A model generated the notes under the pieces. It saw nothing but the letters and a program-made list of their open reading frames with translations. It had not been told where the DNA came from and ran no database searches. DNA of 64,000 nt from Minisyncoccia bacterium (GTDB lineage Bacteria; Patescibacteriota; Minisyncoccia; Phycocordibacterales; Phycocordibacteraceae): positions 442-64,441 of the forward strand of contig JBBRPE010000003.1 of NCBI GenBank assembly GCA_038228545.1, given 5' to 3'. This document shows positions 3,011-64,000 of this stretch, piece after piece; the stretch's first letter is position 1, and each line of letters opens with the position of its first letter. The translations under genes and the position numbers were made by a program.

Positions 3011-4108
3011 TTAAGAGTGTAGAAAGACCATCACGTCACCATCTTTGGTTTCGTAGGTTTTGCCTTCCGTGCGTATATCGCCCTTATCACGTGCAGCGCT
3101 CCACGAACCGTCTGCTATAAGCGTGTCCCACTGAACGACTTCTGCGCGTATAAATTTATCTTTGAAATCCTCGTGGATTGCAGCGCCCGCTTCAGGCGCA
3201 CTTGCGCCTTTTTTCACTGTCCATGCGCGTGTTTCTTTCGGACCAGTAGTGAAGTACGTAATAAGGCCGAGTGTTTCGTAAGCTCCACGTATCAAGTCCT
3301 TGATGCCATCATCTTGCACGCCGAGTTCCGAGCGGAACATAATTTTGTCCTCGTCTGAAACGTCGTTCAGCTCGTGTTCCGTTCGAGCGTCTACCATGAC
3401 GTAACTTCCACCGAGTGATTTCACATATTCGTACGCTTTCTCTGCTCGTCCGTCATTCATTTCGCCGAGATTATGCCCGCCTGCCTTGCCGTTAAAAGCG
3501 TAGAGGATTGGTTTCAAAGTAAGGAGATTGAGTGACTTGATAAGCTTTGCTTCTTCCGGCGTGAGGTCTGCCGTTAGCGCGAGCTTTCCATTCTCTAACT
3601 GACCTTCAACCTTTACGAGGACTGCATCTTCTTCTATCGCCTCTTTCTTATTCATCTTTACGTCCTTGCCGACTTTCTCACGACGATTTTTTACGGATGC
3701 CTGGTCTGCAAGCATAAGTTCAAGATTAATAACCTCAATATCCTCAACGGGATTCACTTCCCCATGTACATGCGTAATGTCTGGATCATCGAAGAAACGC
3801 ACCATTTGCAAAATTGCATCCGTCTCGCGGATATGAGTAAGGAACTGATTGCCCAGTCCTTCACCTTCTGAAGCACCCTTGACCAGTCCTGCAATATCCA
3901 CAAACTCTACAGCCGCAGGAATAGTTTTTTCAGAACCTGAAAGTGTGGTGAGTGCCTGTAGGCGTTCGTCCGGTACGCCAACGACACCCACGGATGGGTC
4001 TATCGTACAGAACGGATAATTCTCCGCTGGCACCGAAGCCTTTGTGAGCGCATTAAAGAGAGTGGACTTCCCGACATTCGGGAGCCCGACGATTCCTATC
4101 TGAAGCAT
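3011..4108 (-). CDS. ychF: Ribosome-binding ATPase YchF (Obg-family GTPase)
   Basis: [22 protein letters not shown] (G1/Walker A), FCTIDP, and a C-terminal TGS-like region ...GDVMVFLHS. 365 aa is typical for YchF. Confidence 0.95.
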
Positions 4109-4131
4109 TGTTCTACCTTACGGTTTGCGGG

Positions 4132-4163
4132 AGAAAAAAGAAAGACCGCCACGGATGGCGGTC
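4132..4163 (-). terminator. Rho-independent terminator (minus strand)
   Basis: Perfect 8-bp hairpin gaccgcca/tggcggtc (4144-4163). On the minus strand it is followed by UUUCUUUUUU (complement of the 4134-4143 A-run). It sits 24 nt upstream of the ychF start. Confidence 0.6.
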
Positions 4164-4290
4164 GGCGCTAGAACGAGAACGCTACGCGGTTCGTTAGGCC
4201 TACGTGTCTGAGGGACATCCAGAAATCTGGTGTCCTACCCGGGGGGAGAAGGCGACACGTGTCCTCGTCCTAGCACTGGCACTGTGCCAT
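4164..4290 (-). ncRNA. Candidate structured small RNA of unknown class (extended hairpin with large asymmetric bulges, 6S-like architecture)
   Basis: On the minus strand a 14-bp closing helix (GCUAGGACGAGGAC / GUUCUCGUUCUAGC, 2 GU pairs) encloses a nested 7-bp helix (ACGUGUC/GACACGU) and an apical hairpin (GGACAUCCAGA-AAU-UCUGGUGUCC). It is followed directly by the intrinsic terminator at 4132-4163. It lies in the 200-nt gap between the flavodoxin-like gene and ychF. Confidence 0.35.
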
Positions 4291-4309
4291 TCAATACTTC
4301 TTTTTGCAA

Positions 4310-4891
4310 TTACACTCCACGTCGAGCAAGTGCGGCAATTTTCTTGAGATACCGCGTATGACGAGTAGGAGTGCAGTTCTCGGAATTTCCGAATTGCGTC
4401 ATGGACACCTTGTAGCCCGACATACCGAGGAGGGCGTAGGAAATTTCGTTGGTGAAGTCACCGAAAACCAGCCGGATAAAAAATGGAGGCATCTTTGAAA
4501 GTGTAATAACGCGTGCAGTTTTGCCATTCAGCATGCGGTCCCAACCCATACCGCTTTTCCAAAAGTGGAAGGCGAAGCCGGGAAGCCACATACGGTCGAA
4601 CATACCCTTAAGGAGCGCGGGCATCGCCGACCACCACACCGGATACACGAGCACAAAGTGGTCAGCCCACTTCATATCTTCCTGGACCTTCTTCAAATCC
4701 GGTTCAAGTTCCTGAATGACCTTATAACCCTTGTGGAGAATAGGGTCGAAGGACAGGTCGCTTATGTTGGTACGACGCACGTAGTGCCCAGCTGCTGCGG
4801 CATCCTTTGCATACGCATCCGCCACATCATTCGAGAGCGTTTCCTCTGAGTCAGGGTTACCCATCAGTATAAAAATGTTCTTTTGCTTCAT
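4310..4891 (-). CDS. Flavodoxin-like fold NAD(P)H:quinone oxidoreductase (MdaB/YwrO-like)
   Basis: MKQKNIFILMGNPDSEETLS...HFVLVYPVWWSAMPALLKGMFDR, an FMN-dependent NAD(P)H dehydrogenase (Flavodoxin_2) signature. Confidence 0.8.
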   Translation of the reverse strand: MKQKNIFILMGNPDSEETLSNDVADAYAKDAAAAGHYVRRTNISDLSFDPILHKGYKVIQELEPDLKKVQEDMKWADHFVLVYPVWWSAMPALLKGMFDRMWLPGFAFHFWKSGMGWDRMLNGKTARVITLSKMPPFFIRLVFGDFTNEISYALLGMSGYKVSMTQFGNSENCTPTRHTRYLKKIAALARRGV

Positions 4892-17580: not shown

Positions 17581-17865
17581 TTATTCATAAGAACATACGT
17601 ATGAATAATCGGAAAGTGGGAGGAGTGGGAAACGCTTTATATCTGGGACTTTGTTTCGGTTATATATCGGACTGCGATTACGCTTTCGGTCACAAATAAT
17701 TCCCTGCAGGAATTTCCGCGACCCCGACTCGGCCACTGGCTCCATACTTCGAATTCTTACAGGACCGTGATTACACTTTCGGTCAAGCGCTCATTCGTCG
17801 CCGTCGCTCCTCATTCCGCCTGACCACGATTTCGCGACCAGCCGTGCTCGGCAGGTGCCCGCGAA

Positions 17866-17960
17866 ATCCTTCGAATCCTGTACGGTACGCACAAAATATA
17901 AGAAAACCCTGCTCACGCAGGGATTTCGTTATTTTGTGGACCGTACAAGATTCTCGACTT
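17866..17960. repeat. Palindromic tRNA-Ala-derived unit A: inverted degenerate copies of the tRNA-Ala 3' half flanking a GC hairpin
   Basis: The plus-sense fragment cttcgaatcctgtacggtacgcac (17868-17891) matches the tRNA-Ala T-arm and acceptor 3' strand. The central hairpin is ccctgc-tcac-gcaggg with A/T runs. The minus-sense fragment tggaccgtacaagattc (17937-17953) matches the same tRNA segment. Confidence 0.7.
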
Positions 17961-18008
17961 ACAGTCGCTGTCCACTCGTTGGATTTTGCTCGATGACTCA
18001 CAAAACGC

Positions 18009-18088
18009 TCAACGAGTTTCTTCGAATCCTGACGCAAGCTCCGCTTGCTTACGGTCCACGACAAAAGCCCCTTGCGGGGCTTTATGTG
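18009..18088. repeat. Palindromic tRNA-Ala-derived unit B (second tandem copy, fused to the functional tRNA-Ala gene)
   Basis: The plus-sense fragment ttcgaatcctg[acgcaagctccgcttgct]tacggtccacg carries an inserted 6-bp hairpin. It is followed by the gcccc-ttgc-ggggc hairpin and then the genuine tRNA-Ala 3' end in the opposite orientation. Same architecture as unit A. Confidence 0.7.
18061..18082 (-). terminator. Rho-independent terminator of tRNA-Ala
   Basis: On the minus strand: GCCCC-GCAA-GGGGC UUUUGU, directly 3' of the tRNA. Confidence 0.7.
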
Positions 18089-18161
18089 TGGACCGTACAG
18101 GATTCGAACCTGCGACATCTTCATTGCAAATGAAGCGCTCTACCAACTGAGCTAACGGCCC
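18089..18161 (-). tRNA. tRNA-Ala (anticodon UGC)
   Basis: Minus-strand sequence GGGCCGUUAGCUCAGUUGGUAGAGCGCUUCAUUUGCAAUGAAGAUGUCGCAGGUUCGAAUCCUGUACGGUCCA. Full cloverleaf, G3:U70 identity pair, A73, T-loop UUCGAAU. CCA is not encoded. Confidence 0.93.
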
Positions 18162-51375: not shown

Positions 51376-51430
51376 TTGAGAGACTAGGGATCGAACCTAT
51401 ATTCACGGCTTCAAAGACCGCTGTCCTACT
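51376..51430 (-). pseudogene. 5'-truncated duplicate of tRNA-Gln (D-arm to 3' end, no acceptor 5' strand)
   Basis: Minus strand GUAGGACAGCGGUCUUUGAAGCCGUGAAUAUAGGUUCGAUCCCUAGUCUCUCAA is ~90% identical to positions 18-73 of the intact tRNA-Gln. The upstream sequence cannot pair with the 3' strand, so it is not a functional tRNA. Confidence 0.65.
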
Positions 51431-51470
51431 GGCAAGCGACTGAGCGAAGAATGGAATCTGTTCTGTTCAG

Positions 51471-51543
51471 TGCTGGGAGACTAGGGATCGAACCTAGATT
51501 CACGGCTTCAAAGGCCGCTGTCCTACCATTAGACGATCTCCCA
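51471..51543 (-). tRNA. tRNA-Gln (anticodon UUG)
   Basis: Minus strand UGGGAGAUCGUCUAAUGGUAGGACAGCGGCCUUUGAAGCCGUGAAUCUAGGUUCGAUCCCUAGUCUCCCAG(CA). Full cloverleaf with the U1:A72 and G73 Gln identity elements and anticodon loop CUUUGAA. Confidence 0.9.
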
Positions 51544-62629: not shown

Positions 62630-63640
62630 TTACACGACGAAGTTTGAAACGGAGTACAAATCATCCTCAGGCTCAGCAACTATAGGCGCGTCAGCCGGAA
62701 TCTGTGTGGTGTTCGGATGTATCGGCATGTCACCGCTTACTACTTCCGCCACTGCTTCGGTAGCTTCAACACTCATTGCGAGTTGTGCCTCCTGACGCTC
62801 CGCGAGTATAGCGGCAATGTGCGAAAGGTCTTCCGGCGAGAAAAATTCAATGAGCACGCGTCCGCCCTGTGGACGATTTTCAATAAGCACACGGGTGCCC
62901 AGTGTTTCCGTCAGACTCTTCTCAAGCTCCATCATTTCGGGAGTCTTGTCGTGCTTGCGAATTTTATCGGTCGCTATACGGCGAGCAAGTTGCTCCACAA
63001 CACGAACTGAGCTTTTCTTCAAAACGATTTCTTTGAAAAGGGTGTCGCGTTCCGCTGGTCGGTCGTTCAACATCAACAATGCACGAGCATGACCCTCGGA
63101 GATTTCTTTATTTACTACGGACTGCTGAATGGCTTCCGGGAGTGCAAGGAGGCGTATGGAATTAGAAATATATTCGCGGCTACGGCCTATTTTTGCAGCC
63201 ACCTCAGTGTGCTGAAGTCCAAATTCTGCAACGAGCTGTTGGAATGCGGTTGCACGGTCTATTGCATTTAAATCTTCACGTTGCAGGTTCTCGATGATAG
63301 CGAGCTCAAGCTTCATCTTGTCGCTCTGTTCTCCCTGACGAATTACGACAGGTACTTCCCGAAGTCCTATAAGTCGCGAAGCGCGGAGGCGACGCTCGCC
63401 TGCTATGAGTTCGTAGGAAGTCTGTATGCCACCATCCGGTTTCTCTATTTCTTTTCGCGTGACGGTAAGTGGCTGGAGAATACCGTATTGGCGAATCGAG
63501 TCCGCGAGTGATTTGAGTGCGGATTCTTCAAATTCGTGACGAGGTTGGTAGGGATTCGCCTCAATACGATTAACTTCGACCCAATAGACGGAGTCGTACT
63601 TCGTTGGTTCGGTGTATTTGCCCTCGCTCATTTGCACCAT
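62630..63640 (-). CDS. parB: Chromosome partitioning protein ParB/Spo0J
   Basis: ParB-N motif YELIAGERRLRASRLIGLREVPVVI and an HTH. Start set at the Met at 63640 (MVQMSEGKY) because the track's upstream extension overlaps a tRNA-Leu gene. Confidence 0.85.
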   Translation of the reverse strand: MVQMSEGKYTEPTKYDSVYWVEVNRIEANPYQPRHEFEESALKSLADSIRQYGILQPLTVTRKEIEKPDGGIQTSYELIAGERRLRASRLIGLREVPVVIRQGEQSDKMKLELAIIENLQREDLNAIDRATAFQQLVAEFGLQHTEVAAKIGRSREYISNSIRLLALPEAIQQSVVNKEISEGHARALLMLNDRPAERDTLFKEIVLKKSSVRVVEQLARRIATDKIRKHDKTPEMMELEKSLTETLGTRVLIENRPQGGRVLIEFFSPEDLSHIAAILAERQEAQLAMSVEATEAVAEVVSGDMPIHPNTTQIPADAPIVAEPEDDLYSVSNFVV

Positions 63641-63694
63641 TGTAGCACCAGCAGGCGCTTTACTATCACGCTGTGCGTGAGTACGATGAGGAAA

Positions 63695-63775
63695 TTGCCG
63701 GGGTGGTGGAATGGTATACACGGTGGATTCAAAACCCGCTGCCGCAAGGCTTGAGAGTTCGAGTCTCTCCCCCGG
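63695..63775 (+). tRNA. tRNA-Leu (anticodon CAA), class II with long variable arm
   Basis: GCCGGGGUGGUGGAAUGGUAUACACGGUGGAUUCAAAACCCGCUGCCGCAAGGCUUGAGAGUUCGAGUCUCUCCCCGGCA. Perfect 7-bp acceptor, A73, anticodon loop UUCAAAA, variable stem-loop GCC-GCAA-GGC, T-arm GAGAG/UUCGAGU/CUCUC. CCA is not encoded. Confidence 0.88.
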
Positions 63776-63796
63776 CACAGATTTAAGCGAAGCTAA

Positions 63797-63952
63797 AAGC
63801 TGGGCCGGGGAGTACCTGGCCTTCGCCAGGTACGTGAGAGACTCGAAAGCCGGAGCGATGTTCGGCGAGCACGCCGAACCGCGAGGCGGGACTGCGACCT
63901 AGGCGAGTGACGACGAGCCTAGAGTTGTAGTCGAGAATGTACTCATGTTCTC
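63797..63952 (+). ncRNA. Candidate structured RNA of unknown class with tRNA/tmRNA-like end pairing (5'-GGGGAG…CUCCCCCACCA-3')
   Basis: Three internal hairpins (GUACCUGGC-CUUC-GCCAGGUAC, GUUCGGCG-AGCA-CGCCGAAC, CUAGGC-N12-GCCUAG) enclosed by GGGGAG/CUCCCC pairing, then ACCA. It directly follows tRNA-Leu and is followed by an intrinsic terminator. Confidence 0.3.
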
Positions 63953-63963
63953 TCCCCCACCAC

Positions 63964-63990
63964 AAATTGAAAAGCCCTGGCGGTTTCCCG
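63964..63990 (+). terminator. Rho-independent terminator
   Basis: gccctggcgg-tttc-ccgccagggc (10-bp stem) followed by TTT at the window edge. Confidence 0.7.
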
Positions 63991-64000
63991 CCAGGGCTTT

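Follow-up and report, generated by a model that had tools for sequence, protein, structure and literature searches.

In the 64,000-nucleotide (nt) stretch of Minisyncoccia DNA analysed here (contig JBBRPE010000003.1, positions 442 to 64,441; referred to as the window and numbered from its first letter), a structured element of ~159 nt at 63804-63962 on the plus strand lies downstream of a transfer RNA (tRNA) gene, tRNA-Leu(CAA). It belongs to a strand-specific family of structured elements that Patescibacteria carry in multiple copies at the 3' flank of tRNA and transfer-messenger RNA (tmRNA) genes, and is probably a non-autonomous selfish insertion element targeting the T-loop/3' end of these genes, a reading to which a probability of about 0.6 is given. 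Its selfish, non-autonomous nature is, we infer, the most likely one. Patescibacteria (also candidate phyla radiation, CPR) have tiny genomes with little space for repeats. Full-text search of the searchable literature found no description of the element, and no Rfam family matches it. Labels such as L083 and L120 denote loci compared with the window in the analysis.

The upstream gene is a class II tRNA-Leu(CAA) at 63697-63777(+), as had been proposed in an initial reading made from the letters only (the sequence-only reading): ARAGORN places it at 63697-63778(+), and Rfam at 63697-63777 with 49.6 bits against RF00005, above the gathering score of 29. The gene encodes no CCA, its discriminator A73 being followed by CAG. 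The same reading had described, next to the tRNA, a strongly structured element with GGGG/CCCC closure ending in ACCA. This element is indeed present, from GGGGAG at 63807 to CUCCCCCACCA at 63962, and the region 63779-64000 folds with -115.5 kcal/mol (z = -8.4; none of 200 shuffles was equally stable). Its closure, regarded at that stage as the mark of an independent tRNA-like domain, consists of the tRNA-Leu 3' end, from T-loop to discriminator, copied once inverted and once direct (this segment is called X below, its inverted copy rcX and its downstream direct copy X-down), and it changes with the neighbouring tRNA. Against the tRNA-Leu 3' end, the arms of the window element show a 12-nt exact inverted match (equalled in 1 of 2000 shuffles) and a 10-nt exact direct match (3 of 2000), the latter being UCUCUCCCCC at 63949-63958. 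The apparent CCACCA exists because the 3' arm lost GGC. In L083, a close relative (ParB 85% identical) whose tRNA-Leu also carries a homologous element, the 3' arm is the full CUCUCCCCCGGCACCA, made up of the 3' strands of the tRNA-Leu T-stem and acceptor followed by discriminator and CCA, and the 5' arm GGGGAGAGACUCGAA is the reverse complement of UUCGAGUCUCUCCCC in the tRNA.

Relatives of the element were located first by a loose motif search of its core in other loci. BLAST and nhmmer searches of the whole element against the tRNA-Leu flanks of 60 species gave no match, relatives emerging only with motif search and covariance models. An alignment of eight core sequences contains compensatory changes, and a first covariance model (R1) found 20 copies across the window and 83 ParB-centred loci, two of them being the tandem cores behind tRNA-Ala in the window. 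A second model (R2), built solely from 118 metagenome copies, scores the window element with 65.9 bits (E=5.5e-14) at 63840-63936, which places it in the family. R2 also detects two tandem cores on the minus strand after tRNA-Ala(TGC) (18088-18161), at 17777-17877 (39.4 bits, E=1e-7) and 17684-17755 (20.5 bits, E=0.0035). A further unit at 17935-18059(-), seen in the sequence and its arm matches as GUGGACCGUA + hairpin + CAGGAUUCGAA ... UGUACGGUCCAC, has arms from the tRNA-Ala 3' end and a different middle, which neither model detects; the window at 17600-18060(-) holds three tandem units of this architecture downstream of tRNA-Ala, and two of the three window tRNAs carry copies. A core-pattern scan of metagenomes yielded at least 120 contigs with 126 matches listed. 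Among the matches listed, 77 sit downstream of a same-strand tRNA, mostly 27-95 nt off, representing 31 anticodons and 17 amino acids, one follows a tmRNA, and ~14 fall by chance in high-GC coding DNA from other phyla. In L156, a one-piece tmRNA (12-407) has a family core behind its 3' end, so tmRNA genes are also a target. Search tools assign the element to nothing, yet it is conserved in the relatives L083, L020 and L015, and its helices and closing pairing covary, as detailed below.

The usual order of parts is a tRNA ending in X, then a long hairpin whose tetraloop is often CUGC, rcX, the core and X-down. The rcX segment complements the tRNA from position ~74 back to 54 and is sometimes split at the acceptor/T-stem boundary by an optional hairpin of conserved form, GAGCGAG..AACUGCUU..CUCGCG. 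The core, of ~95 nt, is a conserved two-hairpin (P2, P3) three-way junction between the arms, ordered as J (A-A-A-G-N), P2 (N-C-GGAG ... CGAG-G-N), GG(GG) and P3 (UCG ... CGUGAC), and X-down directly copies the tRNA from nucleotide 57 through the discriminator and 1-3 nt beyond. Long hairpins with the CUGC loop follow the tRNA at 10 of 59 filled sites (e.g. L085, L087, L093, L108, L105, L111, L091, L182) vs 0 of 97 empty ones; being seen only at filled sites, they are therefore part of the insertion. Two other arrangements were observed. A second structured cargo of ~85 nt, GGUUGCC...GACAACC + GAACAUGUAAUGUUC, occurs at L025 3641-3701(-) and at L120 4795-4854, 7135-7193 and 7277-7335(-); it is unrelated to the core, multi-copy, has similar T-loop-like arms, and the part of it that was scanned matches no Rfam family. 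At 51385-51438(-) of the window, 33 nt after the intact tRNA-Gln (51472-51543), stands an incomplete second copy of that gene, which runs from D-arm to 3' end and has no core; it resembles a 3' part displaced by integration or duplication.

In the 72 tRNA-linked metagenome copies among the matches listed, the arms match the local tRNA and the orientation is that of the tRNA; the longest exact arm match has a median of 10 nt inverted and 13 nt direct, with a mode of 18 nt for the direct match. The rcX segment is a true complement rather than a repeat of the 5' strand: in tRNA-Ala, with its pair G3.U70, the 5' strand is GGGCCGU but rcX reads GGACCGU, and the T-loop portions of rcX are reverse-complemented for all loop variants encountered. 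Flanked by two direct copies of its target segment X, the insertion also holds a segment complementary to it, and the tRNA is left intact because X ends up on both sides. Entry is preferentially in the T-loop, between nucleotides 56 and 57, a site that nearly all tRNAs and tmRNA share; some copies (L003, L085) entered at the very 3' end. Most of the tRNA genes (L085-L204 and the window) continue with CA(A), not CCA, and a downstream copy with a CCA that the adjoining tRNA gene lacks is found in a minority (window, L083, L097, L148, L151, L191). A retro origin of the arms from mature tRNA was mostly rejected, the template being unlikely because the copies usually run on into the genomic CA(A) flank, with CCA in the minority. 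A hairpin-capped-break model, under which the terminators left of rcX and right of X-down should be reverse complements of each other, was not supported either.

The dependence of the closure on the neighbouring tRNA also bears on the proposal of a short or divergent tmRNA, or of an independent aminoacylatable tRNA-like small RNA. Such an RNA would suit the 5'-GGGG / 3'-CCCC-ACCA closure and the position beside a tRNA, and tmRNAs and other tRNA-like domains share with the element a 5'/3'-end helix followed by discriminator and CCA, a place among tRNA genes and a possible role as substrate of RNase P, RNase Z and CCA addition. However, the element has no T-arm, D-loop analogue, pseudoknots or tag open reading frame (ORF), its acceptor-like helix copies the adjoining tRNA, and it is multi-copy per genome. 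ARAGORN in tmRNA mode found no tmRNA in the 64-kb window, Rfam at E<=10 gave no tmRNA or RNase P match for the element, and a gathering-score scan of the whole window returned three tRNAs and nothing else; these searches, suggested together with the sequence-only reading, confirmed tRNA-Leu. The sole Rfam matches near the element are weak and terminator-driven (FsrA, 28 bits vs 80), and Rfam 15 has no match to the canonical members L108 and L120. No T-loop (GTTCRA) precedes the 3' strand of the element, where P1' and a 3-bp (base pair) hairpin stand, and no tag reading frame for a tmRNA occurs in it, which agrees with the failure to identify either in that reading. Related lineages have ordinary one-piece tmRNAs of ~395 nt (L012 160-554(-), L156 12-407). 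A tmRNA-type identity is therefore highly improbable. Identities as tmRNA, RNase P, signal recognition particle RNA and riboswitch were ruled out by ARAGORN and Rfam; hammerhead, twister-sister, group II domain V and k-turn gave no convincing match to the core and have no Rfam support; and a retron non-coding RNA or group II (IIC) intron was rejected, with no reverse transcriptase (RT) ORF nearby, a core of only ~95 nt and no Rfam group-II/retron match.

Within the window element, homology sets the 5' start at 63804 (GCCGGGGAG), upstream of the GGGGAG at 63807 that had been proposed as the beginning; the 3' end is at 63962. The spacer at 63778-63803, with a weak hairpin (AGCUAAAAGCU) delimited from sequence, fold and comparison with other copies, has no terminator, and most family members have the long hairpin at that position. 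The first part of the 5' arm (rcX) at 63804-63812, GCCGGGG(AG), is the complement of the tRNA-Leu acceptor 3' strand CCCCGGC, with an exact inverted match over GCCGGGG (63804-63810). The optional hairpin P0.1 (63813-63832; UACCUGGCC UUCG CCAGGUA), recognised by its fold and by comparison with other copies, then interrupts the arm at the acceptor/T-stem boundary; it is absent from L083 and stands at the same place in many other copies. The second part of the arm, GAGAGACUCGAA (63836-63847), supplies the 12-nt inverted match and is the reverse complement of the tRNA-Leu T-loop and T-stem 3' strand (UUCGAGUCUCUC). The core hairpins were defined by covariance model alignments and covariation: P2 (63849-63887; GCC-GGA-GCG ... 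CGC-GA-GGC) has the conserved GGAG/CGAG internal loop and an 8-bp distal stem, and P3 (63890-63932; GACUGCGACCUAGGC GAGUGACGACGA GCCUAGAGUUGUAGUC) is a diverged version of the family hairpin GGUCG...CGUGACC. Comparison with L083 and with the copies at 17.7 kb in the window identifies P1' and a small hairpin, P4 (AUG UACU CAU), at 63933-63946; GAGA of P1' pairs with CUCG at 63842-63845, and GCG UAAU CGC holds the position of P4 in L083 and the tRNA-Ala units. The 3' arm, GUUCUCUCCCCC-A-CCA (63947-63962), which contains the 10-nt direct match, is a direct copy of the T-stem 3' and acceptor 3' strands of tRNA-Leu minus GGC, then discriminator A and CCA. Three strong internal hairpins had been described earlier; the strong folding holds, but the minimum-free-energy hairpin beside the 3' end (GAGAAUGU...GUUCUC) is probably not the conserved pairing, the same stretch in relatives being P1', the 3-bp hairpin and the tRNA-derived 3' arm.

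After the element, the 10-bp terminator hairpin reported earlier is present on the plus strand as a GC-rich, terminator-like stem-loop at 63974-63997 (63974-63983 paired with 63988-63997; loop UUUC, between AAAA and UUU), identified from sequence, fold and relatives; in L206 and L207, the native tRNA-Leu terminator occupies the matching position. In the candidate region 63974-64000 only three U are visible before the window end, and a terminator scan made no call because that end cuts the U-tract. The tRNA-Leu gene and the element are one likely transcription unit because the long upstream hairpin is missing and the terminator-like stem follows X-down. As the layout suggests, the element would be co-transcribed with tRNA-Leu and would end at 63974-63997; an earlier candidate, a co-transcribed tRNA trailer, suits this arrangement, with no terminator between tRNA and element and a terminator-like stem after. 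A multi-stem junction followed by a terminator stem could also be hypothesized to be a riboswitch or leader for a gene past the window end, with the terminator as expression platform. This is scarcely credible, since the downstream genes vary (phosphoribosyltransferase, miaA, none or convergent), the element follows tRNAs rather than downstream genes, and no known riboswitch family matches.

The core fold is supported by covariation. Over 107 distinct copies, standard pairs make up 95.9% of the pair cells and 23 of the 25 core pairs have changed on both sides, counts that lean toward structure, the large alignment (A4) having been fitted to the model; none of 500 shuffles matches the observed pairing, and partners slid by 1-3 columns give 25-47%. 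The inner 4 bp of the closing helix covary too. GU and UG pairs together fill 149 cells vs 9 for AC and CA (50 vs 9 leaving out a single conserved G.U), and because G.U far exceeds A.C, the fold belongs to the tRNA-sense strand, either as RNA or as that single DNA strand. This strong, strand-specific covariation, with junction nucleotides conserved over deep lineages, is what would be expected of a host-useful RNA scaffolded on tRNA, in which an acceptor/T-stem minihelix identical to that of the adjoining tRNA and carrying a protein- or ligand-binding or catalytic core is excised by RNase P and RNase Z and finished by the CCA-adding enzyme, or in which X, rcX and X form a switch. In the switch form, rcX would pair either with the 3' half of the tRNA or with X-down and so control tRNA 3' maturation or termination. 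The same proposal is favoured by several features of the arms and sites: the element is always co-oriented with the tRNA, P0.1 stands exactly at the acceptor/T-stem boundary, where the tRNA body would emerge, the 3' arm stops at the discriminator, sometimes with a CCA absent from the tRNA gene, and the same locus types recur across genomes, namely tRNA-Leu(CAA) in the window, L083, L020, L015 and L126, and tRNA-Trp in L003, L025, L136, L150 and L191.

The distribution of copies points the other way. Cores that are 92-97% identical stand beside different tRNAs with different arms (L176 Ile/L182 Ser, L121 Arg/L190 Ala, L094 Ser/L103 Ala). In L120 (contig FUWD013231401.1), positions 4047-4698 hold five identical tandem units with a 136-nt period, each consisting of hairpin, rcX, core and a 6-nt X, an array that unequal crossing-over could have produced, as could the integration of a rolling-circle multimer. 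The core of L007 (6540-6800(-)) lies in the 3' end of an ORF with zinc-ribbon/topoisomerase-like product, between 33-nt direct repeats, either copy of which brings its own short C-terminal tail and stop codon. Another non-tRNA site, in L165, has a 9-nt local direct repeat (GAAUCCAGA) and an rcX that resembles the complement of a tRNA 3' end; this 3200-nt contig (GC 36%) is probably a 3073-bp circle because its termini overlap exactly over 127 nt. Its core stands ~145 nt upstream of a DUF3800 gene, and a link to that gene was dropped, as it is not seen at other copies. Occupancy is patchy: copies were found in only 10 of 80 species-level ParB loci, all 10 from Patescibacteria. The orthologous tRNA-Leu site of L206 is empty, with the native terminator directly after the tRNA, and in L207, L208, L082 and L084 the site carries decayed mini-units ending in CUCCCCCGGCA(CCA) and then, as in the window, the native terminator. 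A host-useful RNA is hard to reconcile with such patchy occupancy and decay in close relatives, with tandem arrays and near-identical cores at different tRNAs, with insertions into ORF 3' ends, or with other cargos that share the same arms. Moreover, most copies have a strong bidirectional terminator between tRNA and element, and because of this, co-transcription would need read-through in most copies. On balance, a host-useful RNA is a less likely but plausible explanation, the most probable of the rivals.

The selfish insertion element remains the preferred reading, and some observations weigh against it. A search of the compared loci for near-identical alleles of which one is filled and the other empty found no such pair. 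No transposase, integrase or RT adjoins any copy at the ~120 loci among the matches listed, and mobility is inferred from distribution alone because of this. The core motifs are kept across deep lineages (ParB ~50% identity) together with the conserved G.U, which is unusual for a decaying MITE (a miniature transposable element with inverted repeats) and would suit a host-useful or catalytic RNA. The fitting of the alignment mentioned above belongs here too, and the invariant motifs are partly built in because members were chosen by sequence pattern. This reading does not account for the match of both arms to each new tRNA, and the rcX of L165 conflicts with that of other copies: its sequence suggests that it was inherited from an earlier tRNA site, whereas elsewhere rcX fits the local target. 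As for partners, clustering of 890 neighbouring ORFs from the 120 loci among the matches listed revealed no enriched protein family. The largest clusters, an ORF containing a helix-turn-helix (8 loci) and YraN/UPF0102 (7 loci), show a weak linkage that was judged incidental. With no linked protein family, the element is therefore non-autonomous, or no transposon at all. A search of viral contigs gave one match only, a chance one in coding DNA.

The direct repeats also raise the possibility that the copies are integrase scars at tRNA 3' ends, the repeats being attachment sites attL and attR and the core being the attP-proximal part of miniature or deleted elements (a folded single-strand attP, like those of CTX phage or integron attC). 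The repeats of the tRNA 3' part indeed begin within the T-loop or else at the 3' end, and tmRNA is used too; T-loop and 3'-end sublocations and the use of tmRNA are reportedly known for tyrosine integrases from work by Williams in 2002. A core-less partial duplicate exists at tRNA-Gln (51385-51438), X and rcX could pair to give a double-stranded att site from a single strand, and the tandem array might stem from integration of a small circle in multimeric form. However, no integrase gene lies near the ~120 loci among the matches listed, the inserted unit is just ~150-250 nt, at least 31 tRNA targets would each require a matched attP, the G.U-tolerant covariation indicates a single-stranded nucleic acid and not protein-binding duplex DNA, and the inverted copy of the target is not explained. 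Integrase scars are thus quite improbable, and an integrase-type integrative element was rejected likewise, direct repeats being present with no recombinase in the 120 loci among the matches listed.

How a selfish element of this kind might work can be sketched from its layout. It would target the nearly universal T-loop/3' end of tRNA genes, and its internal rcX may serve as a guide that pairs with X in the target or, alternatively, may pair with X in the transcript. As RNA, the element would fold into a tRNA-minihelix-like stem, a mimic of acceptor and T-stem with discriminator and sometimes CCA, in which the core would replace the T-loop. Both the direct repeats and the tandem array could be accounted for if a small dumbbell circle (X - hairpin - rcX - core) integrated in Campbell fashion; this is speculation. 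It is conceivable, and held as a tentative idea, that the RNA itself does the targeting or chemistry, as a guide-bearing mobile RNA or a single-stranded DNA dumbbell or circle whose rcX would pair with the T-loop/acceptor strand of tRNA genes for insertion there, or else that the tRNA is a natural scaffold for a conserved regulatory or catalytic RNA. A guide-bearing circle might replicate by rolling circle, which the 136-nt tandem array would fit; under the scaffold version, ultra-small bacteria would make a regulatory or catalytic RNA from tRNA transcripts by means of tRNA-processing enzymes.

By analogy, the element appears to work most like safe-haven elements of RNA genes and RNA-folding MITEs. 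It nevertheless has no terminal repeats of its own, recombinase, RT or intron-sized ribozyme and in this departs from both. Its MITE-like traits are a multi-copy, non-coding nature and presence/absence variation, but its inverted repeat is target-derived and varies between copies, and the target direct repeats range from 3 to 33 nt. Safe-haven targeting, co-orientation, non-autonomous derivatives and target duplications of up to ~20 nt are shared with R2/SIDE in rRNA genes, Dictyostelium TRE and yeast Ty3 at tRNA genes, and group IIC introns located after terminators; unlike these, the element has a bacterial host, no RT or intron-sized ribozyme was found with it, and the inverted target copy is unique to it. 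Integrative elements that target tRNA and tmRNA genes also leave a direct repeat of the tRNA 3' part from T-loop or 3' end, an intact tRNA and arrays of partial tRNAs, whereas here the insert is ~150-250 nt, with no integrase, an added inverted target copy, an RNA-like core and at least 31 tRNAs as targets. Correia/NEMIS, RPE, ERIC and REP/BIME repeats are likewise short, non-coding, multi-copy, patchy, hairpin-forming and often co-transcribed with their neighbours, but the element differs from them by its target-derived terminal inverted repeat, its strict site and orientation and its deeply conserved, covarying three-way junction. A further likeness is to the bridge RNA of IS110 and the omega/reRNA of IS200/605, which are two-hairpin RNAs of ~100-200 nt with a segment complementary or identical to the target and a position at the element boundary. 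Unlike these RNAs, the element has no recombinase or TnpB/IscB nearby, its complementarity is long (10-20 nt) and contiguous, its internal loops are not variable guides, and no Rfam match is obtained.

The element sits behind a sizeable share of Patescibacteria tRNA genes and is frequent in groundwater and soil metagenomes, many of the matches coming from groundwater sites such as Hainich and Rifle. It makes pseudo-tRNA 3' ends that resemble tmRNA or tRNA-like genes, and it masks or distorts gene calls, as with the over-extension of parB in the window. If selfish, it offers a testable system for the recognition of the universal tRNA T-loop, with both target strands rebuilt as its own closing helix; if host-useful, it would be a conserved RNA module that borrows tRNA processing. 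Either reading provides a new covariance model for CPR genome annotation.

The parB gene had been called as a 382-aa (amino acid) ORF at 62630-63778(-), the sole long ORF there, which runs antisense across tRNA-Leu. The sequence-only reading held that this call is too long and that the true start is the Met at 63640, and the evidence agrees: the call is over-extended because the Pfam ParB domains begin only at residue 64 of the 382-aa ORF, an exactly identical 336-aa ParB starting at Met 63640 is called in a public contig, and homologues, of 325-350 aa, align from that Met. The corrected coding sequence is 62630-63640(-), encoding 336 aa with ParB_N, HTH_ParB and ParB_C domains. Judged by its ParB homologues, the organism belongs to the Patescibacteria/Paceibacteria. 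Neither the 382-aa form of ParB nor the RelA/SpoT protein of the window has an identical protein on record. The identical ParB occurs in L001, a 1570-nt Logan contig that ends at about window position 63990. Among the 126 metagenome matches listed, 19 have a contig end at or within 200 nt of the element, and because contigs frequently end there, the repeat probably breaks short-read assemblies.

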